60,662 nucleotides of DNA from an uncultured Clostridia bacterium (GCA_944383245.1 CALWOU010000005.1:1-60662); one strand, 5' to 3'; shown: positions 2,114-60,640, counted from the stretch's first letter. Numbers and translations are program-made. The notes: generated from the sequence alone by a model not told the origin.

Positions 2114-2141
2114 ATTATATGAAAATAAGTCTTTATTTAAC
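2114..2141 (-). promoter_or_regulatory. SigmaE-like promoter of murA, leaderless geometry
   Basis: GTTAAAT-N14-ATATAAT (CATATAAT); only 5 nt between the -10 element and the ATG; no SD. Confidence 0.5.
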
Positions 2142-3311
2142 CACATTTAATTTTTGTTTTAATTTAAACTTAAAATTGTGTTTTGATTCTTTTATTTCGT
2201 TTATTCCTTGGCTTATTTCTTTTGATGTTTGTTTATCTACGTTTATCACAACTCCAATTGCAGACATAAACACAAGCAGTGATGTGCTTCCTGCGCTAAT
2301 AAATGGAAGTGGAAGTCCTGTTGGAGGAATTGAACCTGTTACAACTGCAATATTTAGTATCACCTGAATACTAATAATTGCGCCAATACCAAAGCAAAGG
2401 AAAGCGGAAAATTTATTGTTTGCGCGCATTCCAACTTTAAAAATTGTAACAATTAAAATTGCAAACAATATCATAAGAATTAAGCAACCGATAAAACCTA
2501 ATTCTTCTGCTATGATTGAGAAAATGAAGTCGGATTCGCAAAACGGCAAGAAAAGTTCTGCTTGGCGCGAATTAAATAGACCCACTCCCCAAAGTCCGCC
2601 ACTACCTATTGCGTAAAGAGATTGTATTAATTGGTAGCCCTCGTCTAGCGGGTTTGCCCAAGGATTTAAAAACGCCACAATTCTACTTAGTCTATATGGT
2701 TCCATTAAGATTAGTACAACCACCAAAAGCACTGCTGGAATTACTAGTATTCCAAACACTTTCAATCTCATTCCGCCTATAAACATCATAAAAATTAGTG
2801 TGAAAGCAACGCACATTGTGATTGACATATTTGGTTCTAACATAATAAGAACGCAGTAAATTCCGCCAAGAGATAAAGTGATTAGGATATGTTTGAATTT
2901 TGATAGTTTGTCGCCGTCTGACAGGTAACCCGCAAGAAAGAAAACTAAGCAAAATTTGCTTATTTCGCTAGGTTGCATTGTGAAACTACCTATTCCTATC
3001 CACCTTGTTGCACCATAACTTGATTTGCCAAGCCCTGGAATGAACACGAGTGCCAAAAATACAAGTCCAACTATGTAGAAAACCCAATAAAACTTTTTGT
3101 AAACCCTATTATTGATGAATTGGACTATAATCATACCAACTAGTCCAATAATTACACCCGTGATTTGCTTTTTTAGATAGAAAAATTGGTCGTTATATTG
3201 CACAGTTGCCGAATATTTGCTCGCGCTATACACCATAACGCAACCAAAAATTGTGAGTATCAGTGTAAGAACAACTAAGATTATACTATTTTTTCGCGCA
3301 TTCAGTTTCAT
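2133..3311 (-). CDS. spoVE: SEDS family peptidoglycan glycosyltransferase SpoVE/FtsW
   Basis: About 10 TM helices; MVYSAS, GATRWI, QPSEISK, GYQLIQSLYAIGSGG, SDFIFSIIAEELG, TGLPLPFISAGSTS motifs; dcw context with spoVD. Confidence 0.9.
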   Translation of the reverse strand: MKLNARKNSIILVVLTLILTIFGCVMVYSASKYSATVQYNDQFFYLKKQITGVIIGLVGMIIVQFINNRVYKKFYWVFYIVGLVFLALVFIPGLGKSSYGATRWIGIGSFTMQPSEISKFCLVFFLAGYLSDGDKLSKFKHILITLSLGGIYCVLIMLEPNMSITMCVAFTLIFMMFIGGMRLKVFGILVIPAVLLVVVLILMEPYRLSRIVAFLNPWANPLDEGYQLIQSLYAIGSGGLWGVGLFNSRQAELFLPFCESDFIFSIIAEELGFIGCLILMILFAILIVTIFKVGMRANNKFSAFLCFGIGAIISIQVILNIAVVTGSIPPTGLPLPFISAGSTSLLVFMSAIGVVINVDKQTSKEISQGINEIKESKHNFKFKLKQKLNVVK

Positions 3312-25294: not shown

Positions 25295-27173
<1,879 letters not shown>

Positions 27174-32100: not shown

Positions 32101-32276
32101 TTGAATCAGAAATTGAGTATGTTAAATCAGATGTTTATTATAAAACTCTTATTAAAAAACTTGAGCGCGAATCATTGAATTCTAAAACTGACGCGGAAGA
32201 AAATTCAAAAGAAAATGAATTAAATTCTGATAAAACAAAAGGCACTAAAAAGAACACTGATAAAAGCAAAAAATAA
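29139..32276 (+). CDS. Type I membrane protein: repeated CBM-like jelly-roll ectodomain, TM helix, long basic cytoplasmic coiled coil
   Basis: Signal/TM at the N-terminus; internal repeats (ENSNF...YPFSPTGW vs TNGQF...YPATPSSW; NPNS..N.VLM); acidic linker; TM VNWLYVLPSLVFALAIIIAVVGILA; ~160-aa K/E-rich tail. Confidence 0.75.
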   Translation: MKTKKTRFIKNAVSYILSIALFVLANFGLISILAPEMISYGANGGSPNEITIENSNFSSDTSNTYPFSPTGWVASSDEYTSSVDAGVINLEADDYKDIYSKNPNSDDNYVLMINSENVGSDFSYTTKKAVDLGKSTNYEFTIDVYTDNNNGIVNLYLMQEDTVFASLINVSSQNSWSTFHFFVSTNDVDDLSLNLKLNAKNAGVALFDNVSCNELNDSELETRMRNLTSSQYQYIDESNKYQVTTIDLSQNGMFANFSSGDGLIADGLEVNDTSFDGSTNSAFKVQISNNTPSYAKYETADDFITIEQNKIYKISLMVKTTNLSGNANLQLVETNLEDDAEGNDTEVISITSNTTSTLYNNYQVYSFYIFGYVNKDTTYKLVVGLGDADDETMTSGELYLTTAKISNVTYTIFNDVSKGSTEEKLNLNELSTSDTSIYLTNGQFYQFETTDIENPYPATPSSWSVTAGEGEQKYGVVNTSNDEWALFSSNNQLSNLSNPNSNNENNNVLMMYNASRDTLSYTSTSAGKLSAKTYHRFSIDVQTQNSPVTISLITTNNSTEVTLSSITVNKNYNWQTVELYLYTGFSELEVSLKITLDSDAWAYCYVDNATFDYYGEPTSDMFNSLVNTNTRVVTDLTDLLSTNSTSNWANANFVTTSNEGNIKYGITNLNNANLRQEVIQDENDYINFISLDSENKNVYGIRTYEDTNFTATTLLGYKLTGGNYYRLTVSVFTKNLQILNEENMPEADENGNIHFGAGLSLTGFDNSFTNIVSDGRWTTYTFYINPTDDTTTYLQFSLGSSSALVTGDVFFGGIIFEDEGIDTLFDSVIEDGRTLKLQTTTETTDDTEEETTDDENNGGVNWLYVLPSLVFALAIIIAVVGILARKVKWKKPTKKSKTEYDRNRTVSKQIYERKATTIREEKLSELNKELKTLTDERTQYEENYKRDINKLRDMKIKRASQSEINKLNKEMKKDQKLASNLGLTISKIESEIEYVKSDVYYKTLIKKLERESLNSKTDAEENSKENELNSDKTKGTKKNTDKSKK

Positions 32277-32998: not shown

Positions 32999-34516
32999 AT
33001 GAAATCATTATTTAAAGCAGTTGCTATTGTGAGCATTTTTTCAATAATCACGCGTTTGCTTGGATTTTTCTTTCGCATATTTTTATCTAGAAAACTTGGT
33101 GCTGAGGGTTTAGGGCTTTTTCAAATGGCAACAAGTGTGCTGGGAATATTTATGACGGTGATTTCTAGTGGACTACCTCTTACCACTGCTAAACTAGTGT
33201 CTAAATACGAAGTGAATAACGAATTAAAAAGGCGAAATCAAGTTGTCACTTCTGCGCTAATTATTGCTTTATCTATTGCAGTCATATGTTCGCTGATTAT
33301 ATTGCTATTAAAAAAAGTTTGGGGAATAATTTTAACTGACAATAGAGCGGTTGAACTTCTTATAATTTTAATTCCATCCATTATATTTAGTGCGGTTTAT
33401 GCCATTTTCCGCGGTGCGCTTTGGGGTCAAAACGATTATTTTAGTTGTGGATTGACCGAACTTATTGAACAAATTGTGAGATTTGCATTAACTTTCATTA
33501 TGTTATTTACAATAACTGATATGTTCGAAGCAACTAGAAATTCGGCTATTGCATTCAATATTACCTGCCTTGTGTCTGCTATTATCACAATGATTATCTA
33601 CCTTAGGCGCGGAAAACTTAAATTTTCGCGTGCAGAATTTAGACCCGTACTTAAAAGCGCAATGCCAATTACCGGTGTGAGGTTAGCAAATTCGCTTGTG
33701 CAACCTCTTACTACCCTAATTATTCCTAATATGCTTATTATGATTGGATATTCAGCAAGTGAGGCAGTGGCTAGTTTTGGTGTAATTATGGGGATGACTT
33801 TTCCTATGCTGTTTGTGCCTATGTCGGTGGTTGGAAGCATTAGTATGGTGCTTGTTCCGTCAATTAGTTCAATGCTAACTAAAAATCAGTACGACACCAT
33901 TCAAGGAAACATTACAAAATCTCTAGAAGTTTCAATTTTTATTAGTATGCTTTTCATTCCGCTTTACCTCTCGGTAGGTGATTTGATTGGATTGGTGCTA
34001 TATGATAACCAAATGTCTGGTATTTTACTTCAATTATCTGCTGTTTGTGTGTTACCTATCACTTTATGCAACCTCACTGGAAGCATTTTAAATGCACTGA
34101 GTTTGGAAGTGAAATCGTTTGTAAATTACATAATCGGCTCGGTTGTTCTGTTTGTAAGTTTAATTGCGCTCACCCCGCTTGTTGGAATCAATTCAATAAT
34201 TATAGCATTCTTCCTATCAATGGCAACAATCACTCTACTTAATTTAAGAATGATTAAAAAGAAATTGCCACATTTTGAATTTAATCTCATGCCAATACTT
34301 TCAAAATACACTATTGTTACAATCATTTCATGTTTAACAGGGCATTTTATTTCAAACATTTTGCTTCACTTTATTAACAATTTCTTCACTGCCATTATCG
34401 CTGGAGGAATTAGTATTGCAATCACGTTGGTGCTTTGCAAAGTGTTTAATCTATACGATTTAACAACATTGTTTTCACTTATAAAAAAGAAAAAACAATC
34501 CAAACAAAAAAACTAA
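32999..34516 (+). CDS. spoVB: SpoVB-like MOP superfamily lipid II flippase
   Basis: ITRLLGFFFRIFLSRKLGAEGLGLFQ, SGLP, EQIVR, GVIMGMTFP, LVPSIS motifs; about 14 TM helices. Confidence 0.85.
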   Translation: MKSLFKAVAIVSIFSIITRLLGFFFRIFLSRKLGAEGLGLFQMATSVLGIFMTVISSGLPLTTAKLVSKYEVNNELKRRNQVVTSALIIALSIAVICSLIILLLKKVWGIILTDNRAVELLIILIPSIIFSAVYAIFRGALWGQNDYFSCGLTELIEQIVRFALTFIMLFTITDMFEATRNSAIAFNITCLVSAIITMIIYLRRGKLKFSRAEFRPVLKSAMPITGVRLANSLVQPLTTLIIPNMLIMIGYSASEAVASFGVIMGMTFPMLFVPMSVVGSISMVLVPSISSMLTKNQYDTIQGNITKSLEVSIFISMLFIPLYLSVGDLIGLVLYDNQMSGILLQLSAVCVLPITLCNLTGSILNALSLEVKSFVNYIIGSVVLFVSLIALTPLVGINSIIIAFFLSMATITLLNLRMIKKKLPHFEFNLMPILSKYTIVTIISCLTGHFISNILLHFINNFFTAIIAGGISIAITLVLCKVFNLYDLTTLFSLIKKKKQSKQKN

Positions 34517-45801: not shown

Positions 45802-48800
45802 TTATTCAACTTCGCCTGATTTTGGTTCTTCGTCTGTTGAATCTTTTGTTTCAACTGTTTCTTGGCTTTCAGTGTTATTATCAGAAGTTTCTTCAACTAT
45901 TTCAGAAGTTTTTCTTGATTTTCTACTTGTTCCGCCCTTTTTACCTGTGAATGTGAAGAATAAGATTACTCCTGCCAAAATCACAAGTGAAAGAACAATT
46001 AAGACAGTTCCAACAACTGTGTCGTTAGTGTTATCTTCAGGTGCGGTTTCAGTTACAACTTCGAATTTAATTTCTTTAGTTGCAGTGTTAGAATAACTAT
46101 CTGTCATAGTCAAAGTAAGAGTACATTCGCCTGTGCCTGAAATTGTATACAAGCCTGTTGTTTCACTGCTTTCAGTAACGTTGTCACCGGTTAGTTCAAC
46201 GGTTAAGTTTGTCCAACTAGTCATTTTTTTACTGCTACCGCTATCATCTCTATCCCAAATCTCTAATTTTGTGTCGTGAGTATAGATGGTTGTATCGCCA
46301 CTCTTAACAACAATTTCAAGTGTATTTTTAGACCTATTTAGGTTGATTTGATAAGATATTTGAGTTTCGCCGTCATAGATTAGATCTTGCCCTAACACGT
46401 CCTCGCCAACAATTGTGAATGTTGGAGCAACGTTATCGCCCACTTTGATTTCAAAAGTTTGCTCTATTGAACCATTTGAAGTTGTTGCAGTGTAAGTTAC
46501 AGTATAAGTTCCTTTTGAATTTTCGTTAGTTGTGAACATCCACACTTGATAACCATTTAATGTTACAAGTTTGGCATCTCCTGCAACAGGAGTATGTCCG
46601 TCTGGATCAAGAACATTAACTACAACAGTTGCCGTTTCATCGCCTTGACTTGCTGTTAAATAAGGAAGATAAACATCTTGACCTGTACGTGCTGTTGTTT
46701 GAACAGTTATTTCGTTATCCCAAGTTGTCTCTGGCAAAGTGATATTAACATAGATTACTCTTTCAACAGCAGTTCTGCCATCATATTCGCCTGTTACTTT
46801 AACTGTGTAACTACCAACATCGTTGAATGTGTAAGAATTGCCATTTTTCTCGTAATCTAGTCCGCCATTATCGTCAACAGTGACAACCACTCCGTCATCT
46901 GGCAAAACTTGTTTTCCATCTGAAGCATATAGAGTTGGGTCAAAAGTGATTGTTGAACCCATTTCGGCTGTTACAGTGTTACCTGACTTAGATATTTCAT
47001 CATCACTTGTAACTTCGACGTTCAAAATTGGGTCTGAACTATCCTCAACAACAAATGTGAAGTAAACACTAGTTGTGTTGCCTGCATCATCTGTTGCAGT
47101 GTAGATAACATAATATGTTCCTACTTGAGTTGTTTTAATTGTGCCTCCGATAATTGAATTATCGCCGAACACTTTTCCGCTTGTAGATAAATATTGAAGT
47201 CCTGCTTTTTCAGTTTCTGGTGAATTTACATAGTAAACAACATTCATTGCAAGGGTTGAGTCTGCATCAGTAAATTGAATTGCTGGAAGGATAACATCTT
47301 CTGCTTGATTGAACACTTTTTCGCTTGTAACAGTTGTGCTACCATCAATCAAATCACCATATGTTCCGTCTGATAATGCAATTATATCAGCTACAGGAGC
47401 ATCGGTTTCAGTTGAGTTTTCAATAGTGAGAGTTCTAGAATCAATTCCCACTCTGTTATAATCATTTAAGCTTACTGCTACTATAGTAATGTTTGGATTT
47501 TCACTATAACCTGTGAAATCTACAACAAATTCGGTGTTGTTAACTTCATCTTGAGTTGCAACTGCAAAACCATTGTAACCTAGGTCTACCATTTTAGTGA
47601 TTAATTGTGGATCATCTAAAAGGTTGCATTTGTGTTTGTTTGTATCGCTTTCATCGTCGGCAAGGATTGCATTCATAGCAGTATATAAATCTTGTTCAAA
47701 CACACTTGAATAACCCTCATCTAATACGGTTTCAGATGTTGAGTTGTAATAATAGAAAACTGCATTTTTAAGTCTACTATCGCCCTCATCAGTTGCTGAG
47801 ATATAAACAGTTAAATCTTCATTACTGCTTACTGTATCATTATTTCTAATATTGCTAATATTTGTGATTGGAGTGGTTTGTTCACTTTCATCCAAGCCTT
47901 CCTCAGATCCAACTGTTGCACGCGATAAAATGTTGAAAGAATATCTAGTTGTGCCAGAAGAATAAAGGTTAGATTCTTGCACTTTTATAGTGTTAGAGTA
48001 AACGTAGTAACCTAAAGTATATTCGCCAGCATAACGCGAAATATCACTTTCTTCGCCACTCTCTGTGAATTGGAATTTAACTGCCCTGTTATAATTTCTA
48101 TAACCTGGGTTTGTGGCTACGTCTGCAGCATAGTTATAACCCGTTTCGCCCTCAGTTACTTCAACCAATTCACCATCCTCAAATTTATAGTTATCAAGAT
48201 AATAAATTGTTCTAGTATTAGTGTTTTGAATGTAACGAACGAATGTAAAATCGCTATATTTACTTACACTATCAGTTGCATAAATTGCTGGGAAAACAAG
48301 TTCGTTCCATCCATAATTTGCTTTTAAATCAACAGCATAATTAGTGTTAACATCGTCAACAATTTCTCCGTCAACAGTGGTTGTTGTAGGAGTTTGATTG
48401 CCAGCCTCTCCCTCTAACTCATAATCATAAGCCATATAAATAGTTGGAGCAGTGTTATCTGTTACGTTTGACAATCTTACTTGAATAGATTTTTCGTTTC
48501 CATACGCGTCAACAATAGTGTATTTAACAAGGTAATTACCAACTAAATCTCTATAATCAGTGACATTAGTAAATCCATCCTCGCCCGTTGTCATATTAAA
48601 GGTGTAGGTGTTGTTTGTTAAAGTTTGTTTAATTTCAGAATTGTTTGACTTAGTGATTTCTATTGATTTTAAGTTGAATGATGCGTTATTAGAAATTCCG
48701 TCGCTAACAGTGATTGAAGGAAGAGTTACATCAGTGTCTCCCAATTCAATTGTTGGCATTGATTGAACTGTCAAGCGCAAGTCGTCAACGGTTGGTTCAA

Positions 48801-49653
48801 CGAAATCTTCTGAAACGTCGATAACAAAGGTTTGAGTAGGACGGTTTGCACCATAATTGTAGGTGTATTCTATAGTATATCTACCCTCTTCACTTGGAGT
48901 TAGGTAGTATCTTTGAGTGTCCTCATCAAATTTAAGTTTACCATCAACTTCATTTTCAGCCAAAATTGCGCCGTTATAGTAAACTACAGGTTTAATCATT
49001 TCAGACAACTCAACATACTCATCTTCGCCTGCAAGCTTAACGTTTGCAACAGGAAGTTCGATTTCCTCAGTTGATGGTGCCATATTGCTTGGAAGAAGAA
49101 CATTTAATCCAGCATTCTCGCCTTCACGAATAGAAAAATCAAGTTCGTATGAAACGTTTTTGACAGTTACAGAATAAGTGTTTGAATAGTACGTTTTATC
49201 TCCAATTGTTACAACGTAAACAATTGAATATTTACCGCTATTTCTAACGTTTACTCTTAGACCTGGTTTTTCAGGGTCTTGCAATTTAGAATCGTCAAAA
49301 AACTCATCCGCATCTGGATTTGTTGCTAAATTTTCTTGAACGACATAATCGTGGTTTTGACCTGCTGGGTCAACAACACGAATAGTGTAACTATCTAAGC
49401 CTTCAGTTTCGCCAAAAGAAGAACTTAGAAGTGGAATAACAAATTCCTTGCCTTCAACGGACATATCAATTGTCCCCTTAGGCATTTTGATTGAATTCAT
49501 AGCAAGTTTATAGTTAGTTACTGCATAATTGATTGCGTCATAACTCGTTGCAGCATAAGACGTGAAAACAGGGCTTACTGCAAAGATAAAACTTATCACA
49601 GCGAATGCTATGAAACTAATGATTAATTTAAAATATCTCTTAAAAGTTGCCAT
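45802..49653 (-). CDS. Large Ig-like-repeat surface protein with C-terminal TM anchor
   Basis: Signal peptide (SYA/A); repeated D..AP and GTY.V.YTATD..GN Ig-like motifs; C-terminal TM plus charged tail; no LPxTG or SLH. Confidence 0.8.
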   Translation of the reverse strand: MATFKRYFKLIISFIAFAVISFIFAVSPVFTSYAATSYDAINYAVTNYKLAMNSIKMPKGTIDMSVEGKEFVIPLLSSSFGETEGLDSYTIRVVDPAGQNHDYVVQENLATNPDADEFFDDSKLQDPEKPGLRVNVRNSGKYSIVYVVTIGDKTYYSNTYSVTVKNVSYELDFSIREGENAGLNVLLPSNMAPSTEEIELPVANVKLAGEDEYVELSEMIKPVVYYNGAILAENEVDGKLKFDEDTQRYYLTPSEEGRYTIEYTYNYGANRPTQTFVIDVSEDFVEPTVDDLRLTVQSMPTIELGDTDVTLPSITVSDGISNNASFNLKSIEITKSNNSEIKQTLTNNTYTFNMTTGEDGFTNVTDYRDLVGNYLVKYTIVDAYGNEKSIQVRLSNVTDNTAPTIYMAYDYELEGEAGNQTPTTTTVDGEIVDDVNTNYAVDLKANYGWNELVFPAIYATDSVSKYSDFTFVRYIQNTNTRTIYYLDNYKFEDGELVEVTEGETGYNYAADVATNPGYRNYNRAVKFQFTESGEESDISRYAGEYTLGYYVYSNTIKVQESNLYSSGTTRYSFNILSRATVGSEEGLDESEQTTPITNISNIRNNDTVSSNEDLTVYISATDEGDSRLKNAVFYYYNSTSETVLDEGYSSVFEQDLYTAMNAILADDESDTNKHKCNLLDDPQLITKMVDLGYNGFAVATQDEVNNTEFVVDFTGYSENPNITIVAVSLNDYNRVGIDSRTLTIENSTETDAPVADIIALSDGTYGDLIDGSTTVTSEKVFNQAEDVILPAIQFTDADSTLAMNVVYYVNSPETEKAGLQYLSTSGKVFGDNSIIGGTIKTTQVGTYYVIYTATDDAGNTTSVYFTFVVEDSSDPILNVEVTSDDEISKSGNTVTAEMGSTITFDPTLYASDGKQVLPDDGVVVTVDDNGGLDYEKNGNSYTFNDVGSYTVKVTGEYDGRTAVERVIYVNITLPETTWDNEITVQTTARTGQDVYLPYLTASQGDETATVVVNVLDPDGHTPVAGDAKLVTLNGYQVWMFTTNENSKGTYTVTYTATTSNGSIEQTFEIKVGDNVAPTFTIVGEDVLGQDLIYDGETQISYQINLNRSKNTLEIVVKSGDTTIYTHDTKLEIWDRDDSGSSKKMTSWTNLTVELTGDNVTESSETTGLYTISGTGECTLTLTMTDSYSNTATKEIKFEVVTETAPEDNTNDTVVGTVLIVLSLVILAGVILFFTFTGKKGGTSRKSRKTSEIVEETSDNNTESQETVETKDSTDEEPKSGEVE

Positions 49654-49683
49654 TTTGTCTCCTATAATATATAAGTCTAGAAT

Positions 49684-49712
49684 ATTCTAATAAATACAGA
49701 AATTTTTGTCAA
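49684..49712 (-). promoter_or_regulatory. Strong sigmaA promoter of the 1283-aa gene
   Basis: TTGACA-N17-TAGAAT. Confidence 0.8.
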
Positions 49713-49827
49713 ACAAAATAATGCTAATTTTAGAAAGTTTACACAAATAGTTTGATGACAAATTCAAATTTTATAATAAGAAAAAAAACTAGTTTTGTCG
49801 ATTTCTGACGACTTAACTAATTTTTTA

Positions 49828-50352
49828 CTATATTTTTTTAAGTTGCTCTTCTGCATACTCTTTCGTAATAAAGTTAAATTCGTCGCTACTTGCCAAAAAA
49901 TATTGCCTTTCTCTATGGTTATTAAGTTTTAATAAAAACTCGTTGTCAAGCATCTTATATCGTTCAATCAAAATATTGTTTAACACTTCAAAATCTGTGC
50001 TGTTTATATCTATTAATGCGTGTTTATTTTCAATTGCCCATTCAATTGGATTTACTTTGGATGTGTTGAAATTGGTTAGCACGTTCATATCCTCAGGTGT
50101 GGTTACAACGCGCGTGACGATTTTGATTTTTTCAAGAATTGTTCGTGGCAATTCCTTCACTGCATTTGCATCCAAATAATAAAATTCACACAACTTTTGT
50201 GGCTCGCCAAAAATGGCTTCGGCGTGTTTTTGACGTTTTAATATCACTCTATCGCCATACACTCCGCGACCGCGCTTGTATTCGACAATTTCATAAAAAT
50301 TATTTATCAAAAAGTCTAATTGAGGCCAATTTGCTGGATTAACCTTTGTCAT
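49828..50352 (-). CDS. Hypothetical soluble protein, second gene of the HicB-like operon
   Basis: 174-aa ORF; SD AGGT; starts 12 nt after the HicB-like gene. Confidence 0.7.
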   Translation of the reverse strand: MTKVNPANWPQLDFLINNFYEIVEYKRGRGVYGDRVILKRQKHAEAIFGEPQKLCEFYYLDANAVKELPRTILEKIKIVTRVVTTPEDMNVLTNFNTSKVNPIEWAIENKHALIDINSTDFEVLNNILIERYKMLDNEFLLKLNNHRERQYFLASSDEFNFITKEYAEEQLKKI

Positions 50353-50364
50353 ACTAACCTACTT

Positions 50365-50637
50365 TTAAGCCAATGCATCTACTAATAAAACAATGTTTTT
50401 CTTTCCGTATTCTTTATACACTTTTTCAAAATCAGTTGGAGATTCAATCTCACAGTTGAATTTGATGGCGCAATCAACAAGTGAGCATAAATCTACTTTT
50501 GCTCTAACATATGCGCTTTCAACTGTTTCGCCGTCAGTGATAATGCCTAGGTCTGGAATCTTGATAGTGTACCAACCCGTGTTGGTGCCAGACTCATCGT
50601 CTTTAAAAAGTATTGCAGGATAAACTAATTCTTTCAT
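50365..50637 (-). CDS. HicB-like antitoxin N-terminal domain protein
   Basis: LVYPAIL...YTIKIPDL.IITDGETVESAY..AK..L...IESPT HicB pattern; no C-terminal HTH/RHH; start moved to ATG 50637. Confidence 0.8.
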   Translation of the reverse strand: MKELVYPAILFKDDESGTNTGWYTIKIPDLGIITDGETVESAYVRAKVDLCSLVDCAIKFNCEIESPTDFEKVYKEYGKKNIVLLVDALA

Positions 50638-50683
50638 TTTCCACCTTCTTTGTATTTTATTCAAAATTTAGTTAATCATTACG

Positions 50684-50712
50684 ATTATATCATAAAAAAA
50701 ATTTAATGTAAA
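50684..50712 (-). promoter_or_regulatory. SigmaA promoter of the HicB-like operon
   Basis: TTTACA-N17-TATAAT with TG extension. Confidence 0.7.
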
Positions 50713-50842
50713 ACAAATAAAATGTAAATTTAAAAAAATAATTGTAGATTTTTTGATATAACCTTATCAATATTTGAACAAATAATCTGTGAAACGCGCT
50801 CTGAAAAATTACCACATTGCATAATATTCTCTAATATTAAAT

Positions 50843-50870
50843 AAAAAAATTCTCACTTGATGTGAGAATT
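50843..50870 (-). terminator. Terminator of the 115-aa gene
   Basis: AAATTCTCAC-TTGAT-GTGAGAATTT, with a T tract on the minus strand. Confidence 0.75.
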
Positions 50871-50881
50871 TAATTATCGAA

Positions 50882-51229
50882 TTACATTGCTAAACCTTTT
50901 GAGTTTTCTTCATGTGCATCAACTCTTGCTCTTGCATTTTTAGCACGCCTTTTTTTCATCATGCGCTCCATCATTGTGTTTGAGATTTTAGGTTTTTCAG
51001 ATTTTTCAGATTTTTCTAATAGCTTTAGAACCATATTTTCTATTTTATTATTTTTTTTCACATTTTCGGCGAAAACTTCCCTAACTGCTTGAATTGTTGC
51101 AGGAGATGTTCCATTAACAACGTCAGCATTCTTCGTTAACATATTTCTGAATTTATTTTCTCTTTTCATTTCTTCAATGTGTAACCTATAGAACTCTATT
51201 TTTGCTCTTAATATATCTGCTGGGTTCAT
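50882..51229 (-). CDS. Hypothetical basic helical protein
   Basis: SD AGGAGG; own promoter (TTTACA-N17-TATTAT, 51253-51281) and terminator. Confidence 0.75.
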   Translation of the reverse strand: MNPADILRAKIEFYRLHIEEMKRENKFRNMLTKNADVVNGTSPATIQAVREVFAENVKKNNKIENMVLKLLEKSEKSEKPKISNTMMERMMKKRRAKNARARVDAHEENSKGLAM

Positions 51230-51681: not shown

Positions 51682-54600
51682 TTATTCTTCTTCGATATCG
51701 TCAAATTTAATATCAACGTCTTGATTTATCATTGAGGCATTATCTTTAATTTGTTTTGGAAGAAGATTTCTATAAATTGGAGCACCTGTTCCTGCTGGAA
51801 TCATCTTACCGATTATGATATTTTCTTTAAGACCTCTTAAGTGGTCTACTTTACCTTTTAATGCTGCCTCAGTTAGCACATTACTGCTTTCTTGGAATGA
51901 TGCAGCGGATAAGAAACTTTCAGTTGTTAAAGATGCCTTAGTGATACTTTGAAGTTCACGTTTAGCAGTTGCTGGAACGCCACCTTCTTGGATTGCCTTA
52001 GTGTTTGCCTCTTCATAAACTCTAATATCAACAGTGTCACCTGGAAGAAGGTCAGTATCTCCTGGATTTTCGATTTTAACCTTTCTAAGCATTTGCCTAA
52101 TGATGATTTCCAAGTGTTTAGCATTGATTGAAACACCTTGTGTTTTATACACTTGCAAGACTTCGTTTAACAAATATTCTTGAACTGCTTTCACACCGCT
52201 AGTACGCAACACATCTTTAGGATTTAATGGTCCGTCTGTTAGCGGAGTTCCTGGAGCAACAACATCTCCGTTTTTAACTTTCAAAGTTGCGCCGTATGGA
52301 AGCAAGTAGCTTTCTTCGGTTGTGCCTTTAACTGTTACTTCGAAACGTTTATCGATTTGATTAATTGTAACTTTACCACCGATTTCGCTCATAACAGCCG
52401 CACCTTTAGGATTGCGCGCTTCAAAGATTTCTTCAACCCTTGGTAAACCTGTTGTGATATCACGAGATGCGACACCACCGCTGTGGAAGGTACGAAGCAC
52501 CAACTGAGTACCTGGTTCACCGATTGATTGAGCAGCGATTACGCCGACAGCCTCTCCCACGTGAACTATGTCGTTAGTTGACATATCTCTACCATAACAT
52601 TTAGCACAAATACCAGATTTTGCCTTACAAGTGAGTGCGCTTCTGATTTGCACTTTTTCAATTCCTGCGTTGACAATTTGTTTTGCGAGTTCGTTTGTGA
52701 TAAACACATCAGCACCACAAATTTCTTTCTTGGTTTTAGGGTCAATAACAGGAGCAGATGTAAATCTACCAATAATTCTGTTTTCAAGAGTTTCAACAAT
52801 TGTTCCGTTTTGTTCGATTGTTTTTACGTCTATACCTTTAACGTGTTCGCCTAATGAAGCAAAGCAATCTTCTTCTGTGATTGTTGTGTCTTGCGCGATG
52901 TCCACAAGACGACGAGTTAGATAACCTGAATCTGCTGTTTTTAATGCTGTATCCATCAATTGTTTACGAGCACCACGCGCTGCGCTATAGTATTCAAGCG
53001 CGGACAAACCTCTGCGATAGTTAGATTTAACAGGAACATCAGATGCATTACCGCTTGCCACGTCCATTATACCAAGCATACCGCTTAGAGTTTGATATTG
53101 ACCATCGTTACCACGTGCACCAGATGTTAAAATAATCTTCAATGGATTGAATTTATCTGCCACACTTGCTGTTTCTTTGGTTATTTCTTCTCTAACTTTT
53201 GCCCACAATTCTGTGTTTTTACCTGCTTTATCGTCGTAACTCATAAAGCCTTGCATATATAATGCATCGTTTTGCTTTGCAAGTTCGTTGGTTTCTTCAA
53301 TCTTTTTATCTCTATCTTTTAGTTCGGTTATATCAAAGATTGAGAATGAAACACTCGATAACGTTGAATATTTGTAACCCATATTTTTGAGGTTATCAAT
53401 CATTTCAACTGTTGTGTTAGTGCCGTGTTTTCTATAACAAATTTCAATAAGTTTTGAATAGAAACCTTTTTTAACTTCTTCATTTACCTCATACTCAAAG
53501 GCATTTTCGCGTTTAGTTCTATCAACATAGCCTAAATCTTGAGGTATTATGCTATTGAATATAATTCTTCCAAGAGTTGTTTCAGTTCTTCCTGTTATCA
53601 TCTTGCCTTCAAATTCAACAGTTCTACGCACTTTTATTTTTGCTTGTAATGATAAATCGCCATTTTCATAAGCAAGTTGTGCCTCATCTGGCGAACTGAA
53701 CACCATACCCTCGCCTTTTGCGCCTGGTTTAACCACTGTGATATAGTAGTTACCTAAAATCATATCTTGGCTTGGCACCATATTTGGAGCGCCGTCACTT
53801 GGTTTTAACACGTTATTTGAAGCAAGAAGCAACATTCTAGCTTCAGTTCTAGCCTCAACTGACAAAGGCACGTGAATACTCATTTGGTCACCGTCGAAGT
53901 CGGCATTAAAGCCCGAACAAGCAAGAGGTGGCAAACGAATAGCTTTACCTTCAACTAAGATTGGTTCAAATGCTTGCACACTGAGTTTGTGCAAAGTTGG
54001 CGCACGGTTTAGTAGCACAGGGTGACCTTGAACAACCTCAGACAAAATATCATAAACGATAGGTCGCTCTTGCTCTATCATACGAGTTGCTTTCCTTAAA
54101 TTATTTGTTGCGTTTAATTCAAGCAACCTTTTAATAATAAATGGACGGAACAATTCGAGCGCCATCATCTTTGGCAAACCGCATTGATAAATTTTAAGTT
54201 CTGGTCCAACCACGATAACACTACGACCTGAATAATCCACACGTTTACCAAGCAAGTTTTGACGGAAGCGTCCGTGTTTACCCTTCAAACTTGCAGTTAA
54301 AGATTTCAAATCACGTTGACGGCTACCCTGCACTGCGCGACCACGTTTTCCGTTATCAAATAGCGCATCCACTGCCTCTTGAAGCATACGTTTTTCGTTT
54401 CTCACAATGATTTCAGGAGCGCCCAATTCCATTAATTTTTTCAAACGGTTATTTCTGTTAATTACCCTACGGTATAGGTCATTTAAGTCACTTGCTGCGA
54501 ACTTTCCGCCGTCGATTTGAACAAGCGGTCTAAGATCTGGTGGAATAACAGGAATAACGTCTAATATCATCCAACTTGGCTTATTTCCGCTTTTAATAAA

Positions 54601-55248
54601 TGCTTCGATAATTTCCAACTTTTTAGTGGCTTTAAGTTTTCTTTGACCTTTGGAAGTGTGCATAATCTTGGTGAGTTCATCGCGCTCTTTTTCAAGGTCA
54701 ACTTGCTCTAAAAGTTCTTTTATTGCCTCAGCACCCATTCCTGCACGGAAACCATCTGGGCCATATTTTTCAACTGCCTCGCGGTATTCTCTATCGCGAA
54801 TTACTTGTTTATAAGTAAATTCTGTGTTTTTAGGATCAAGCACAACGTAACTAACATAATATAAAACTTCGTCTAATTGCTTTGGACTCATTTCAAGAAC
54901 AAGACCAATCCTACTTGGCACACCTTTGAAAAACCAAATATGGCTAACCGGGCAAGCAAGTTCGATGTGACCCATACGTTCACGTCTAACCTTACTACGA
55001 GTGACCTCAACACCACATTTATCGCAGACTACACCTTTATATCTTACTCTTTTATACTTTCCGCAGTGGCATTCCCAATCTTTTTTAGGTCCAAAAATAC
55101 GTTCGCAAAAAAGACCGTCTTTTTCAGGTTTTTGCGTGCGATAGTTGATTGTTTCTGGCTTGGTAACCTCTCCTCTTGACCACGATCTAATCATCTCAGG
55201 GGATGCGATACCAACACGGATAGAGTCAAAATTGTTTAATTCAAACAT
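51682..55248 (-). CDS. rpoC: DNA-directed RNA polymerase subunit beta'
   Basis: Zn finger CHCGKY...[59 protein letters not shown]. Confidence 0.99.
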
Positions 55249-55504: not shown

Positions 55505-58500
55505 TTACTCGTCTAAATCATCGAATAACTCAGATTCATCAAATGCAGTGTTGTTAACATCTTGCTCGAAATCGTTTTGAATATCGTCAAATTCAAGTGT
55601 GACATCGTCAAGCGATTGTTTGTTGACTGGTTCAACTGCTGTAACTTCCTCGCCTTCTTCGCTAACTTCGTTGATTGTGAGTTCGTGATTATCTGCAGTT
55701 AAAATTCTAACGTCTAAGCACAATCCTTGCATTTCTTTAACCAAAACTTTGAATGATTCTGGCATTCCTGGTTCAGGAATTGGCTCGCCACGAACGATTG
55801 CGTCATAAGTTTTGATACGACCTTCAACATCGTCCGATTTAATTGTTAACATCTCTTGAAGAAGCCTTGATGCACCATAAGCTTCCAATGCCCAAACTTC
55901 CATTTCACCGAAACGTTGACCACCTAGTTGACCACGTCCGCCAAGAGGCTGTTGAGTGATAAGTGCATATGTTCCAATTCCACGCGCGTGAATTTTATCT
56001 TCAACCATATGGTTAAGTTTTAACATATACATTACGCCAACAGTTGTTTTATTTTCAAATGGAAGGCCTGTTCTTCCGTCGTATAGTTGCATTTTTCCGT
56101 CCTCAGGTAGACCATTTGCACGCAACAATTCTTTGATTTCTGATTCTTTTGCACCATCGAATGCTGGAGTTGCAACCTTCCAATCAAGTTGCTTTGCAAC
56201 CAAACCTAAGTGAGTTTCAAGCAATTGACCTAAGTTCATACGCGAAGGAACACCTAGTGGATTTAACACAATATCCACAGTTTCTCCGTTTGCCATATAT
56301 GGCATATCTGATTCAGGAAGAACAACAGAAACGACACCTTTATTACCATAACGACCAGCAAGTTTATCACCAACTTGAAGCACACGTTTTTGCGCGATGT
56401 ACACTTTAACTACCATATTTACGCCCGCATCAAGTTCGTCTTTATTCTTTCTAGATAAGATTTCAACGTTAACTACGACACCTTCCTCGCCGTGCTTAAC
56501 TTTAAGGCTTGTGTTTTTAACTTCTTTAGTTTTCTCGCCAAAGATTGCTTTAAGTAGTCTTTCTTCTGGAGTTAGGTCAGTTTCGCCTTTTGGTGTTACT
56601 TTACCAACCAAAATATCGCCAGGGCGCACTTCTGTTCCAATACGAACAATACCATTTTCATCAAGATTTCTAAGCGCATCTTCGCCAACGCCTGGGATGT
56701 CTGCCGTGATTTCTTCATCGCCAAGTTTTGTGGTGCGTGCCTCAGTTTTCACTTGTTGAATGCTAATTGAAGTGAATGCATCTTCTCTAACTATTCTTTG
56801 GTTAACTAAAATAGCATCTTCGTAGTTATAACCTTCCCAATTCATAAATGCGATTGTCATATTTTTACCAAGTGCCAATTCGCCTTTATCTGTGGATGCT
56901 CCGTCTGCTAAAACGTCACCTTTTTTAACCTTTTCTCCCTTTGTTACAAGAGGTTTTTGATTAAAGCAGGCTTTTTCGTTTGTTCTTTCAAATTTTCTAA
57001 GTTTGTGGTTAACGATTGAGCCGTCTGCATATTCCATTGTGATGTAGTCTGCTGAAACGTATTTACATTCACCGTCTTGTTCGGCAAGTATCATAGCGCC
57101 AGAGTCAACCGCCACCTTATGCTCGATACCCGTTCCTACGATTGGGCTGTCTGTTCTAATTAATGGCACTGATTGACATTGCATATTAGTACCCATCAAC
57201 GCACGGTTACCTGCGCAGTGTTCAACGAAAGGAATAAGACCAGCACCAACTGATAACAACTGCCTTGAACTGATATCAACAAGGTCTATCATACTTGAAT
57301 CAACGTGAACTGTTTGATTGTATGTTCTGCAGTCGACAAATCCTGGTTTTATAACGTTGTTATCATCCACATCAATTGTGGCTTGTGCAATGTAGTGACC
57401 TTTTTCTTCATCTGCCATTAAATATACAACATCGTTTGTGATTTGATGAGTTTTAGGGTCTACTTTTCTATAAGGAGTTTCAATAAATCCATATCTATTT
57501 ACGCGCGCATAAGCGGCAAGTGAAGTCATAAGACCAATTGATTGACCTTCTGGAGTTTCAACCACACAGATACGTCCGTAGTGAGAAGGATGAATATCAC
57601 GAGTTGAAGGAGTGGCACGTTCTTTCTTAACACCGCCAACACCTAGCGAACTCAATCTGCGTTTGTGTCTTAGGCTTGCTGCTGGGTTAATTTCATCCAT
57701 TAAGCCACTTAATTGGCTAGTTGCCATAAATTCTTTAAATGCTTTGTTGATTTGCCTTGCGTTAACGATTTGGCTAGGAGTTGCGTCAGTTAAATCACGG
57801 CTTTGAAGAGCTTCACGAACCTGAGTTTGAAGTTTTTTCATACCGCTTCTAAATTCATCGCGAAGAAGTTCGCCACAAGTTGCAACTCTTTTCATTGTTA
57901 AACTATCAATTTCATCTGTTTCGCCAAGGCCATCAATCAAATTTAAGTGATAACTAACAAGCGCTATTAAATCATCCAAAGTCATTTGGAAATCAACTAA
58001 TTTTCTAGCATTTTGTTGAATTGCGTTCTTAAGCCCTGCCTCATCGTCCTTATACTCTTTCATTATCTCTTGAAGAAGTGGCAAATAAACAAGTTCAGTG
58101 ATTCCAAACTCTTCAGGGTCAAGTTTAGCATATGCTTTAAGGTCAACACGTTTATTTCCAACAACGCGCACCAATTTTTCGCCAACTAAAACGTTAACTG
58201 AGTTAATACCCGCATTTTGAATAGCAATTGCCATATCGTGAGTGATAAGGTCCCCCGCTTTTGCGTAAACTTTCTTTCCAAGTTTAATATCTTCGCCTGC
58301 GATTTGGTCAGTTATACGATTTGCAAGTGACAATTTCTTATTAGTTTTAAATCTTCCTGCCAACTCTAAATTGTAGTTTTGTGGGTTGAAGAAACGGTCA
58401 TTAATGTATGCTAGTGTGTTGTCTGGGTTAGGAATTTCACCAGGACGAGTGCGACGACCAAATTCAATCAATGCATCCTCTTGCGTGATTTGTGGTTCTT

Positions 58501-59179
58501 TCTCTAAAGTGTTAACCATAAAAGGATGATTTGCAAAAATTGATAGGAGTTCGTCGTTTGTGTAGCCAAAACATTTTAGCAACACACCAAGACTCATTTT
58601 GTATTTATTTTCAACCATAACACGCAATGTGTCGCCCGTAACTTGCTCAGTTTCCACTCTTATTCCGTGGTCTGGGGCTAACATTCCGTGATAGTCCATT
58701 CTACCAAATTTATTTATTTCTCCGTCAAAAATAACACCAGGAGATTTTTTGAATTGGTTTAAAATAACACGTTCAACACCATTCCAAATAAATCCACCGT
58801 CGTTTGACATATATGGCACGTCGCCTAAGAACACATCTTGGTCCATAACTTGACCGGTTTCCTTAACAAGCAAACGAACAGTTACAGTTAGTGGAACTGT
58901 GTAACTAAGTTGTTTGGTTTTGCAAGTTGACCATGAATATTTTGGTGTGTCGCCAACTGTATATGCCAAAAAAGACAACTCTGCTTTATTAGAGTAGTCT
59001 ATAATCGGATTATATTCGTTCAAAACCTCACCAATGCCAACGTCTTTAAACCAAGCGTAACTTTGTTTAGGTATGCTTAACCAATCTTGCACTTCATATG
59101 GAATAACCTTTTTGGAAAAGTCGTGGCGAACAGCCTTTCCATTCTTGACTTTTTTAATGTTGAGTATGTTTGAATCCAT
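55505..59179 (-). CDS. rpoB: DNA-directed RNA polymerase subunit beta (divergent)
   Basis: HKRRLS, HYGRIC..ETPEG, GYNYEDAI, GDILVGKVTPKG, NPLGVPSRMN, GGQRFGEMEVWALEAYG; SD AGGAG. Confidence 0.99.
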   Translation of the reverse strand: MDSNILNIKKVKNGKAVRHDFSKKVIPYEVQDWLSIPKQSYAWFKDVGIGEVLNEYNPIIDYSNKAELSFLAYTVGDTPKYSWSTCKTKQLSYTVPLTVTVRLLVKETGQVMDQDVFLGDVPYMSNDGGFIWNGVERVILNQFKKSPGVIFDGEINKFGRMDYHGMLAPDHGIRVETEQVTGDTLRVMVENKYKMSLGVLLKCFGYTNDELLSIFANHPFMVNTLEKEPQITQEDALIEFGRRTRPGEIPNPDNTLAYINDRFFNPQNYNLELAGRFKTNKKLSLANRITDQIAGEDIKLGKKVYAKAGDLITHDMAIAIQNAGINSVNVLVGEKLVRVVGNKRVDLKAYAKLDPEEFGITELVYLPLLQEIMKEYKDDEAGLKNAIQQNARKLVDFQMTLDDLIALVSYHLNLIDGLGETDEIDSLTMKRVATCGELLRDEFRSGMKKLQTQVREALQSRDLTDATPSQIVNARQINKAFKEFMATSQLSGLMDEINPAASLRHKRRLSSLGVGGVKKERATPSTRDIHPSHYGRICVVETPEGQSIGLMTSLAAYARVNRYGFIETPYRKVDPKTHQITNDVVYLMADEEKGHYIAQATIDVDDNNVIKPGFVDCRTYNQTVHVDSSMIDLVDISSRQLLSVGAGLIPFVEHCAGNRALMGTNMQCQSVPLIRTDSPIVGTGIEHKVAVDSGAMILAEQDGECKYVSADYITMEYADGSIVNHKLRKFERTNEKACFNQKPLVTKGEKVKKGDVLADGASTDKGELALGKNMTIAFMNWEGYNYEDAILVNQRIVREDAFTSISIQQVKTEARTTKLGDEEITADIPGVGEDALRNLDENGIVRIGTEVRPGDILVGKVTPKGETDLTPEERLLKAIFGEKTKEVKNTSLKVKHGEEGVVVNVEILSRKNKDELDAGVNMVVKVYIAQKRVLQVGDKLAGRYGNKGVVSVVLPESDMPYMANGETVDIVLNPLGVPSRMNLGQLLETHLGLVAKQLDWKVATPAFDGAKESEIKELLRANGLPEDGKMQLYDGRTGLPFENKTTVGVMYMLKLNHMVEDKIHARGIGTYALITQQPLGGRGQLGGQRFGEMEVWALEAYGASRLLQEMLTIKSDDVEGRIKTYDAIVRGEPIPEPGMPESFKVLVKEMQGLCLDVRILTADNHELTINEVSEEGEEVTAVEPVNKQSLDDVTLEFDDIQNDFEQDVNNTAFDESELFDDLDE

Positions 59180-59620: not shown

Positions 59621-60640
59621 CTAAACTTCCACTCCTGCGCGATTTTCTTTTAAGGCTTTCACTTCTTTTATTAATTCTTTTGGATTTGCTAGGTGCACGT
59701 AGTTTTTATTCATTTTACTTGTACTCTTTGCAATATCGCAAAACTCATCCCAAGTTAAGTCCTTATACACTTGCAAGCACAACGCGTACATTCCCACAGC
59801 CTGCGGAATTGTCCACGAAAAAGAACCCTCATTCACATATTGATATCCATTTTCACTTTTGTATTCCGGAATAACTTTGCCAGCACAAATAAATGAAACT
59901 CTACCATTTTCTTTTTCATAGTTATAAAAATTGGTTAAATCTTCATCGTCTGGTTTGTAAAAGGAAGCAAAATCTAAATTATCTAAATTTTCAAAATCGT
60001 CATAATATTTAAAATCTGCACATTCAAAATTTTCGCCAAATCTAGTGGAATCCACCAACACGCAACCAAGACGCTCTAATTCGTCCACTTTTAAAAGCAC
60101 TCTTTCAAAATTTTCAATGCTTCCATAAATTTTTGTTATTTCTTCTTTGCACCAATTTTTATCTTTATATTTTTCATAAACATCTCGTGAATATAAGGCA
60201 CCACTTCTAATAAGGGCTTTTATGGGTATTCCCAATTTGATTTTGCTTATAATATCATCTAAATATTTTGTGTATAATTCAATAAATTTTTCGCCCTGCC
60301 AAAAATGCACAGCATAATAATAGCATTCAACATCTGGTGCAACTCCAATATTTTTGCCTAGCAGATTTGATAAAACTCCTTCGCTATGAAAGTGCGGTTC
60401 TTGCTTTACTTCATCTTTAATATGTATGTTAGCATCGCCAAATTCAATATGTGAATTATTTAAGCAATTATCCATACATGCAACAACTATTTCTTTACCT
60501 GTTATTCCATTCTTGTGCAGTTCGCGAATTCCAAGCATTGGGTTTTTGCCACGTTCTAATATCTCTTGCGGATTAAAATCTTTTAGCATTTTGTCCGCAC
60601 TTGGCCAAATTGTGGACGAATTAAAGATTAGCATCGCCAT
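59621..60640 (-). CDS. S8 (subtilase) family peptidase, no signal peptide
   Basis: LHKNGITGKEIVVACMD (Asp), HFHSEGVLS..G..IGVAP (His), GSFSWTIP..VG (Ser); true start may lie beyond the window edge. Confidence 0.75.
   Translation of the reverse strand: MAMLIFNSSTIWPSADKMLKDFNPQEILERGKNPMLGIRELHKNGITGKEIVVACMDNCLNNSHIEFGDANIHIKDEVKQEPHFHSEGVLSNLLGKNIGVAPDVECYYYAVHFWQGEKFIELYTKYLDDIISKIKLGIPIKALIRSGALYSRDVYEKYKDKNWCKEEITKIYGSIENFERVLLKVDELERLGCVLVDSTRFGENFECADFKYYDDFENLDNLDFASFYKPDDEDLTNFYNYEKENGRVSFICAGKVIPEYKSENGYQYVNEGSFSWTIPQAVGMYALCLQVYKDLTWDEFCDIAKSTSKMNKNYVHLANPKELIKEVKALKENRAGVEV

Follow-up and report, generated by a model that had tools for sequence, protein, structure and literature searches.

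Probable stepwise remodelling of the RNA polymerase active-centre cleft in the gut bacterial lineage Candidatus Onthoplasma

The analysed stretch of DNA (60,662 nucleotides; GCA_944383245.1, CALWOU010000005.1:1-60662; hereafter the window) originates from an uncultured Clostridia bacterium and harbours the genes for the two large subunits of RNA polymerase (RNAP). The rpoB gene (55505..59179, minus strand) is an uninterrupted frame of 1224 codons coding for a beta subunit of 1224 amino acids; rpoC (51682..55248, minus strand), which codes for a beta-prime subunit of 1188 amino acids and is remodelled alongside rpoB, adjoins it downstream. The predicted RpoB matches the ordered set of six Rpb2/RpoB Pfam domains (PF04563, PF04561, PF04565, PF10385, PF00562 and PF04560) and scores 1387 bits against NF001616 (cut-off 896) and 1351 bits against TIGR02013 (cut-off 801) of NCBIfam. 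Scores above the family cut-offs, domain order, active-centre residues and the adjacent single-copy rpoC place it among the bacterial beta subunits; RpoC retains the NADFDGD motif and the trigger-loop residues R933 and H936. No rplL is located upstream of rpoB and no rpsL-rpsG-fusA downstream of rpoC, the genes for EF-G and EF-Tu residing on contig C1. The frames flanking rpoBC (29139–32276, plus strand; 45802–49653, 49828–51229 and 59621–60640, minus strand) have no NCBIfam match. The host genome (1,166,297 bases on 43 contigs; a metagenome assembly rated 95.55 % complete) is that of a chicken-gut bacterium, a Candidatus Onthoplasma species of the family UBA1242 (GTDB) in the order Christensenellales (NCBI), and the closest solved structures to its polymerase are clostridial RNAPs. 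Genomes of UBA1242, to which Onthoplasma belongs, are mostly smaller than 1 Mb, are devoid of amino acid, nucleotide and lipid pathways and of standard transporters, encode an incomplete glycolysis and retain sporulation genes; a symbiotic or parasitic lifestyle was predicted (PMC12306168).

One rpoB and one rpoC were detected in the host genome by protein search, family model (HMMER) and tblastn, and no second, divergent rpoB was found with HMMER and tblastn in this 95.6 %-complete genome. RpoB matches were obtained in 39 of 41 relatives, the two without a match being 69 and 51 % complete, and the relatives have one full-length rpoB apiece. Additional rpoB matches in five relatives are situated elsewhere, on different contigs or at a later point of one contig, and align with other portions of the query, thus representing split genes or fragments; genome G094 (6 % contamination) also holds a separate contig with an rpoB match of 36–57 % identity. 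The preliminary description of this DNA had considered a pair of RNAP paralogs, e.g., vegetative versus sporulation; a related case would be a second, resistant copy of the kind known from some actinomycetes. SpoVE/FtsW-, SpoVD- and SpoVB-like genes are indeed present in the window (2133–3311, 7399–9303 and 32999–34516, respectively), next to a SpoIIE-like gene on contig C2 (100807–103089) and three sigma-70-family genes in the host genome, which fits the published retention of sporulation genes in UBA1242 (PMC12306168), and duplicated rpoB with one resistant copy is reported for 90 species in excerpts of PMC12337354. Given the single rpoB and rpoC in the host and the fragmentary second matches in relatives, such a pair is nevertheless practically precluded, and the idea was rejected.

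Residue numbering follows E. coli throughout and derives from alignment to E. coli K-12 RpoB and RpoC plus relatives. The motifs quoted in the preliminary description are all present in the RpoB translation, and the 13 substitutions it had listed (V146L, R151K, W183R, R451K, Q513G, F514L, R540K, E546S, V547T, N568S, I572M, D675A and R687C) were all confirmed by alignment to E. coli K-12 RpoB. Further substitutions in RpoB are H447S, G449T, N450M, T525R, P535V, L538V, F545P, P567Q, D674C and H1070Y. The block comprising rifampicin (Rif) cluster I, fork loop 2 and Rif cluster II (E. coli 505–575) was located by alignment at 57518..57730 (minus strand, as are all segments below), close to the previously proposed ~57600–57740. 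Its first part contains F506M, G507A, S508T, Q513G, F514L, L521A, S522A, E523S, I524L, T525R, A532S and P535V, followed by L538V, T539K, R540K, G544T, F545P, E546S, V547T, P560V, I561V, P567Q, N568S, I572M and N573T. Streptolydigin resistance presumably maps to fork loop 2 (543–546), and positions 146 and 687 are taken here to represent Rif clusters N and III, respectively. The segment of the core recognition element (CRE) pocket at 57890..57916 (E. coli 443–451) carries D444E, H447S, G449T, N450M and R451K with D446 kept, and the N-terminal Rif cluster, which also forms the CRE wall (E. coli 143–151; 58745..58771), carries V146L, S147N, L149F and R151K. W183R is encoded by AGA at 58658..58660; another strain has AGG, likewise Arg. 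In the link region (E. coli 672–688; 57173..57223), D674C, D675A, A676G and R687C are accompanied by unchanged N677 and R678, and the motif GRYGNKG (E. coli 1068–1074; 56336..56356) contains H1070Y, with K1065 and K1073 kept.

In the beta-prime subunit, the F-loop and bridge helix (E. coli 736–805; 52891..53100) display I737Y, Q739T, R744L, L746I, P750A, V769A, F773Y, I774S, S775A, H777R, G782Q and A784M, and the trigger loop (E. coli 925–940; 52471..52518) displays T931V and M932L next to unchanged R933 and H936. All 22 catalytic and core contact residues checked match E. coli, i.e., 13 in beta (D446, D516, H526, R529, S531, N677, R678, E813, D814, K1065, K1073, R1106 and H1237) and nine in beta-prime (D460, D462, D464, G778, A779, D785, K789, R933 and H936). 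R678, E813, D814, K1065, K1073, R1106 and H1237 are assumed here to be active-centre or substrate-contact residues. As the alignments show, the rebuilding of the predicted proteins spans both large subunits and affects the Rif pocket, fork loop 2, the CRE pocket and the bridge-helix cap, the latter composed of the beta link region with D674/D675, the beta-prime F-loop and the N-terminal bridge-helix hinge including G782Q.

The extent of change was assessed at columns invariant in E. coli and eight (or four) Christensenellales genomes of other families, a usage of invariant that does not refer to all bacteria. RpoB alters 90 of 429 columns (21 %) invariant in E. coli and the eight genomes, and RpoC 56 of 464, which bears out the earlier proposal of remodelling at near-invariant motifs. 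Among columns invariant in the four genomes, 187 of 643 (29.1 %) are altered in RpoB versus 385 of 3163 (12.2 %) in nine ordinary markers pooled (Fisher p about 3e-24, a loose value in view of non-independent sites and kin), more than chance or ordinary divergence would produce. The changes are clustered: residues 1–575 of beta account for 48 altered out of 143 invariant columns and residues 576–1342 for 42 out of 286 (p about 1.5e-5), and in beta-prime the F-loop and bridge helix (731–805) account for 14 out of 46, with 42 out of 418 in the remainder (p about 3.5e-4). Within the 38 residues of the Rif site (510–537 plus 563–572), 15 differ from E. coli in this species, 4–8 in the eight other families and 8–14 in the rest of the family; excerpts of Yang et al. 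(PMC10550828) report fewer than five substitutions in this 38-residue window for most of about 4,000 species. Likewise, 14 of the 25 residues of the CRE-pocket set differ from E. coli (2–5 in other families), as do 8 of 15 salinamide-contact residues (0–2 in seven other families, 5 in G034).

The history of these changes was traced with rpoB and rpoC from 12 genus genomes (of 19 with a full-length match), 20 family genomes of other genera (drawn across the identity range from 74 with a match, on contigs long enough for rpoC) and eight genomes of other families (of 15); together with the window gene, the set comprises 13 genus members, 33 family genomes and 41 RpoB/RpoC pairs. Identity to the window RpoB amounts to 73–88 % within the genus, 48–71 % in the 74 other-genus family genomes with a match (78 searched) and 49–52 % (full-length matches) in the order's other families. 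The RNAP-independent tree (UvrA and UvrB, FastTree) branches from the other families via the basal genera G064 and G072 and mid-family genera to the pair G069 and G050, which stands beside G082 and the genus. All eight genomes of other families are canonical at beta 513, 514, 526, 533, 572 and 675 and at beta-prime 782, and the RNAP states of G064 and G072 are nearly canonical. Among other family genera, 13 of 15 carry 526Q (11) or 526N (2) together with a changed position 533 (533V in 12, 533I in one); 10 of these 13 also possess 514L, and K539-K540-T/S544 in fork loop 2 is found in most. The near genera and the genus gain 513A/I/P/G/S and A532S. G082 and the genus acquired beta D674C/D675A and H1070Y on the same branch as beta-prime G782Q and A784M, and genus Onthoplasma gained R687C/A. 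H447N/S, G449S/T and N450M/I, as well as T931V and M932L in beta-prime, are present in all genus members except the two deepest. R451K is restricted to this species among the 13 genus members, W183R is shared with one further member, and P535V, F545P, E546S and V547T are also borne by this species. T525R and changes of beta D675 and of beta-prime R744, L746, S775 and G782 are present in 13 of 13 genus members. Positions 513, 526, 533, 568, 674/675 and 687 are still changing inside the genus; at 526, His is found in 7 of 13 members (including this species) and in 5 of 5 near-genus genomes, Asn in 6 of 13, and N or Q in 19 of the 33 family genomes examined. Since most changes are common to all 13 full-length genus members and earlier steps are visible in the family, the lineage-wide rewiring envisaged in the preliminary description was corroborated.

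Of the 90 changed invariant RpoB columns, 42 show one common new residue in 12 or all 13 genus members. The region 57400–58800 is present in 20 of 24 listed public runs from 14 studies, mostly of chicken or bird gut, and four metatranscriptome runs from two studies contain 62–74 % of its sampled words; shares of 0.00–0.15 in some public runs are evidence of nothing. Strains were compared in one run from each of four studies, two runs being of DNA and two of RNA libraries; their contigs span 57400–58800 with 10–27 differences per 1401 bases. The 38 variable places comprise 33 synonymous and 5 non-synonymous ones, none of which alters a motif residue, and silent changes occur inside the unusual codons themselves, i.e., those of G513 (GGC/GGT), L514 (TTA/CTA) and R183 (AGA/AGG). 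With about half of the new residues fixed in the genus and nearly all strain variation synonymous, the comparison shows that the unusual residues are under purifying selection. It also bears on an artefactual origin by mis-assembly, chimeric binning or sequencing error, for which a metagenome assembly of 43 contigs might give reason: the frame is open over 1224 amino acids, 12 full-length congeners share the pattern, and the unusual residues recur in four independent runs with only silent differences at motif residues. Assembly error is thereby excluded, and the probability left to an artefact of any kind is negligible.

Rates of divergence were compared for 14 proteins as the ratio of ln(identity) between this genome and four other-family genomes (G028, G026, G036 and G040, out of eight) to ln(identity) among those four. 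RpoB (1.68) and RpoC (1.45) rank behind GroEL (2.06) and LeuS (1.90) and ahead of ValS (1.39), followed by EF-Tu (1.25), UvrA (1.24), GyrB (1.23), EF-G (1.21), GyrA (1.20), SecA (1.10), DnaE (1.09), DnaK (1.07) and UvrB (0.93). When all eight other families serve as the reference, RpoB reaches 1.77, RpoC 1.53, UvrA 1.29 and UvrB 0.99. The comparison of branch lengths proposed in the preliminary description was carried out by maximum likelihood (ML) on the fixed UvrA+B topology, with the path to other families divided by the distance among them, and yielded 2.21 for RpoB versus 1.35 for UvrA+B in this genome (RpoC 1.92, GroEL 2.87). Across the family, the ML ratio of RpoB climbs from 1.27–1.34 in the basal genera via 1.57–1.70 and 1.84–2.02 to 2.21. 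Family models convey a similar picture: the rpoB model scores 1351 bits here, the lowest of 19 scored (1643–1784 in six other families), the rpoC model 1642 bits (other families 1783–1859) and the sigma-A model 360 bits (402–410). Scores of EF-G (1134 bits; 1153–1176), EF-Tu (739; 730–754), DnaK (926; 923–954), SecA (1091; 1102–1154) and GreA (177.5; 176–180) are within 0–6 % of other families.

Judged from these comparisons, RNAP, and beta above all, is a rate outlier against the nine ordinary markers, from which GroEL and LeuS were left out, but not the sole outlier. The earlier claim of an RNAP-specific divergence therefore stands for RpoB and, less so, for RpoC and sigma-A relative to these markers, and falls with GroEL and LeuS, which have diverged as far or further. 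For both proteins a basal family member is as distant as this genome, which suggests family-wide replacement or acceleration; RpoB divergence instead grows within the family. GroEL (25295–26899, minus strand), the fastest marker tested, shares only 58–59 % identity with its counterparts in three close congeners and 53 % with that of a deep congener (RpoB about 80 % in the genus), and 43–53 % with those of relatives in family and order, although other families share about 72 % among themselves. LeuS (contig C3 of the host, 48421–50829, minus strand) reaches 44 % identity with other families (65 % among these), and its equal distance in a basal family member suggests a protein divergent or replaced family-wide. 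UvrA, UvrB and ValS had been regarded as ordinary, which holds for the first two. ValS was rejected as a control marker, as congeners carry a different, much lower-scoring ValS. The window ValS (22294–24921, plus strand) scores 1035 bits on TIGR00422, is 48–51 % identical over nearly full length to seven of eight other-family ValS proteins and has no match at E<=1e-100 in 4 of 4 congeners and 2 of 3 near-genus genomes searched. A shorter ValS (668–717 bits) is encoded in these six genomes; in at least one of them its gene neighbours groEL, an arrangement also seen here. Located on a plus-strand island with a local GC content of 0.37, valS looks like an in-place replacement in this species.

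Canonical Rho above the model cut-off is encoded in 8 of 8 other-family genomes, and was not detected at E<=1e-30 in any of 16 UBA1242 genomes (93–100 % complete) or at E<=0.001 in the host genome. In a wider set of 81 family genomes, none passes the cut-off and 67 have no match at E<=1e-20; a weak Rho-like frame of about 400–500 amino acids (72–197 bits) occurs in the other 14 and looks like a decaying or very divergent Rho. Mycoplasma and phytoplasmas likewise have no Rho, according to excerpts of PMC3322544. GreA, NusG, Mfd, PcrA and RelA/SpoT are present in the host. Of the partners whose loss was checked as an explanation (GreA, NusG, Mfd, RelA/SpoT and Rho), only Rho is missing.

Relaxed purifying selection and drift in a symbiont of small population size, with compensation keeping the enzyme alive and no new optimum attained, could in principle account for such an RNAP. 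Genomes of about 1 Mb and the predicted partner-dependent life (PMC12306168) are compatible with this possibility, as are the strong divergence of GroEL and LeuS, the variation of 48 of the 90 changed invariant RpoB columns within the genus, and the decay of Rho in the family (weak frames in 14 of 81 genomes, none over the cut-off). Ratios of 0.93–1.25 for EF-Tu, EF-G, DnaK, SecA, GyrA/B, DnaE and UvrA/B together with near-normal model scores, however, argue that drift is not genome-wide. Moreover, the genus has settled on a single new residue in 42 of the 90 changed columns, synonymous places outnumber non-synonymous ones by 33 to 5 within the species, with silent changes inside the unusual codons, and the changes are clustered in specific modules of both subunits. 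A purely non-adaptive origin is regarded as less probable, yet as a rival to be taken seriously.

Natural Rif-site variation and clade-wide intrinsic resistance are already known. As described in the consulted parts of PMC10550828, Rif-site substitutions yield fast or slow RNAPs, and this speed governs both nucleotide pools and the dependence on Rho: 524L and 526N count as "fast", 567Q confers resistance to bicyclomycin and 5-fluorouracil and is probably slow or stringent (with the authors speculating on a fit to nucleotide-limited life), and positions 514, 521 and 525 can give rifampicin hypersensitivity in E. coli. In the portions of PMC12337354 drawn on here, 8 % of 18,127 species have a panel resistance residue and are predicted to be intrinsically resistant, mostly via one residue, with 144 Clostridia species flagged; 526N/Q is found in Mollicutes and 531N in spirochaetes. 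The same study names 525R among the resistance residues that the screen predicts and that are frequent in nature, and cautions that the presence of a residue does not guarantee the phenotype. None of the named panel residues 526N, 526Q, 531N, 574Y, 518D and 522D occurs in this species (H526, S531, S574, I518, A522). At positions 146, 508, 513 and 572, which the main text of that study names without residues, it has 146L, 508T, 513G and 572M. Rifampicin insensitivity of this species is plausible, about an even bet, as 513G, 514L, 525R and 572M are present but none of the four main contacts is altered; in relatives bearing 526N/Q, predicted insensitivity is better grounded, indeed well grounded.

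The CRE pocket comprises beta ~440–455 and 535–555, with W183 stacking on the +1 non-template base and D446 reading the +2 G, and in E. coli W183A cuts the open-complex half-life to 0.19, while E546A doubles the elongation rate and reduces termination and hairpin pausing (excerpts of Petushkov et al. 2015, PMC4499132). Both residues are substituted here, as W183R and E546S; as points of difference from that set of mutants, the base-specific contact D446 is kept, the substitutions are not alanines, and segments 443–451 and 533–547 are also changed. Altered pausing appears plausible, and a loss of CRE recognition is unproven, with the +2G-reading D446 kept. Salinamide contacts beta-prime 738, 739, 744–748, 775, 778, 779, 781, 782 and 785 and beta 675 and 677; D675 and G782, the latter conserved from bacterial to human RNAPs, are sites of high-level resistance (excerpts of Degen et al. 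2014, PMC4029172). Contacts D675, R744, L746, S775 and G782 of the salinamide-resistant E. coli mutants are changed here too, but naturally and fixed rather than selected in the laboratory, and the widely conserved G782 is Gln. According to excerpts of PMC2652393, two fidelity mutations have been characterised in E. coli, D675Y being one of them.

RpoB of Mollicutes (Mycoplasma, Spiroplasma) offers a close biological setting, as these are likewise Bacillota with reduced genomes, dependent on a host or partner and having a lineage-wide altered Rif site. They are rifampicin-resistant with natural 526N or 526Q, residues also found in the 19 of 33 UBA1242 genomes, whereas H526 is retained in this species. 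Here the remodelling extends much further, to 15 of the 38 residues of the Rif site, the CRE pocket, the link region and the beta-prime bridge helix and F-loop; it arose independently within Clostridia and is accompanied by cell-wall/sporulation-type SpoVD/E/B-like genes. Spirochaetes and actinomycetes with 531N or duplicated rpoB (Nocardia, Nonomuraea, Actinomadura) resemble the present case in their clade-clustered predicted intrinsic insensitivity (PMC12337354, in part), but rest on one or two residues; S531 is unchanged and no second copy is present here. The saturation mutants of the E. coli Rif site (Yang et al. 2023, PMC10550828, in part) cover the same 38 residues and include I524L, P567Q and T525R, the last enriched under rifampicin according to PMC12337354; all three are present here. 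They are, however, single changes in a canonical enzyme of a Rho-containing cell, whereas 15 changes co-occur here with beta-prime partners in a Rho-less one, so that the net phenotype is not readable from the single-mutant map.

Antibiotics could have driven these changes, with natural RNAP inhibitors (rifamycin/sorangicin-, streptolydigin- or salinamide-like) selecting for them, resistance as the function and altered kinetics as a side effect. The three altered modules are known inhibitor targets (PMC10550828, PMC12337354 and PMC4029172, each in part), the validated resistance residues 526N/Q occur in 19 of 33 family genomes, and positions 513, 526, 533, 568, 674/675 and 687 keep changing in the genus in an arms-race-like manner; the same origin was proposed for other intrinsically resistant clades in the excerpted PMC12337354. 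On the other hand, this gut lineage is not known to encounter such inhibitors or their producers, and H526 is so widespread (this species, six other genus members and 5 of 5 near-genus genomes) that the strongest resistance residue is not being held. The changes also reach W183, R151, 443–451 and both lobes, contacted by no known inhibitor, and excerpts of PMC12337354 concede that resistance residues may arise neutrally or otherwise, without guarantee of the phenotype. Selection by inhibitors is considered less probable as the main cause, yet likewise a serious rival.

The most probable interpretation is that this gene is the sole functional and probably expressed rpoB of this Onthoplasma species and that the active-centre cleft of its RNAP was rebuilt stepwise and lineage-wide. 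The kinetic set-point of the cleft would thereby have shifted, with respect to elongation speed, pausing, open-complex stability and contacts to the non-template bases at +1 and +2. This shift may have taken place in a lineage that no longer has canonical Rho and obtains its nucleotides by scavenging. The enzyme would have been kept working by changes coupled between beta and beta-prime, and weaker binding of rifamycins or of inhibitors of the bridge-helix cap or fork loop would be a likely by-product. Several observations weigh against the stepwise, kinetically relevant rebuilding. Every phenotype in it is deduced from sequence, and the RNA-library contigs cover the gene but cannot prove its transcription. 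The 48 changed invariant columns that vary within the genus fit relaxed constraint as well as adaptation, and D516, H526, R529, S531 and D446 are kept. Acceleration is not unique to RNAP, given that GroEL (2.06) and LeuS (1.90) match RpoB (1.68) in divergence, and even UvrA+B displays a mild family-wide rise in ML ratio from 1.07 to 1.43. Finally, Rho loss is one phylogenetic event common to the whole family, so that loss and remodelling coincide in time, which is less than a tested correlation, and the two basal genera have no canonical Rho yet a nearly canonical Rif site.

A more far-reaching variant is put forward tentatively. After the loss of canonical Rho and of nucleotide synthesis, UBA1242 may have re-tuned the nucleotide-addition machinery as one unit, resulting in a kinetically distinct RNAP insensitive to multiple inhibitors, most extreme in Onthoplasma and convergent with Mollicutes, but wider. 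The Rif pocket, fork loop 2, CRE pocket, link region, F-loop and bridge-helix hinge including G782Q might, equally tentatively, constitute that co-evolving unit. RNAP remodelling of this scale in UBA1242 or Onthoplasma, including the beta-prime part, was not found in the literature, with the supplements of PMC12337354, which possibly list these genomes, outside the search; among publications naming Onthoplasma or UBA1242, no title or abstract deals with their RNAP.

Next to the RNAP genes, the 1.17 Mb genome contains nine giant frames (7132, 3790, 3623, 3113, 2958, 2933, 2784, 2252 and 2037 amino acids), among them 9410–20281 (minus strand, no NCBIfam match) in the window, 82790–104188 on contig C1 and seven more; they may code for surface or attachment proteins of a partner-dependent cell. 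A gene for a VirB4-type ATPase (contig C9, 12264–15020, plus strand) matches the model "Mbov_0397 family ICE conjugal transfer ATPase" with 560 bits (cut-off 590), which describes a family from mycoplasma integrative conjugative elements (ICE). A frame of 1329 amino acids (contig C24, 4948–8937, minus strand) matches the anti-phage models ProA and Hhe with 585 and 433 bits, respectively, below the cut-offs.

Onthoplasma thus represents a clade of common animal-gut bacteria with an RNAP altered in the Rif site, CRE pocket and bridge-helix cap, yet under purifying selection. Predictors of resistance based on single residues and phylogenetic markers based on rpoB will misjudge this clade. If the enzyme behaves differently, it would constitute a natural experiment on how far the "invariant" nucleotide-addition machinery can be rewired together, would bear on the demands that Rho and nucleotide supply impose on RNAP kinetics, and may help to explain why some gut bacteria are unaffected by the rifamycins used in animals and people.

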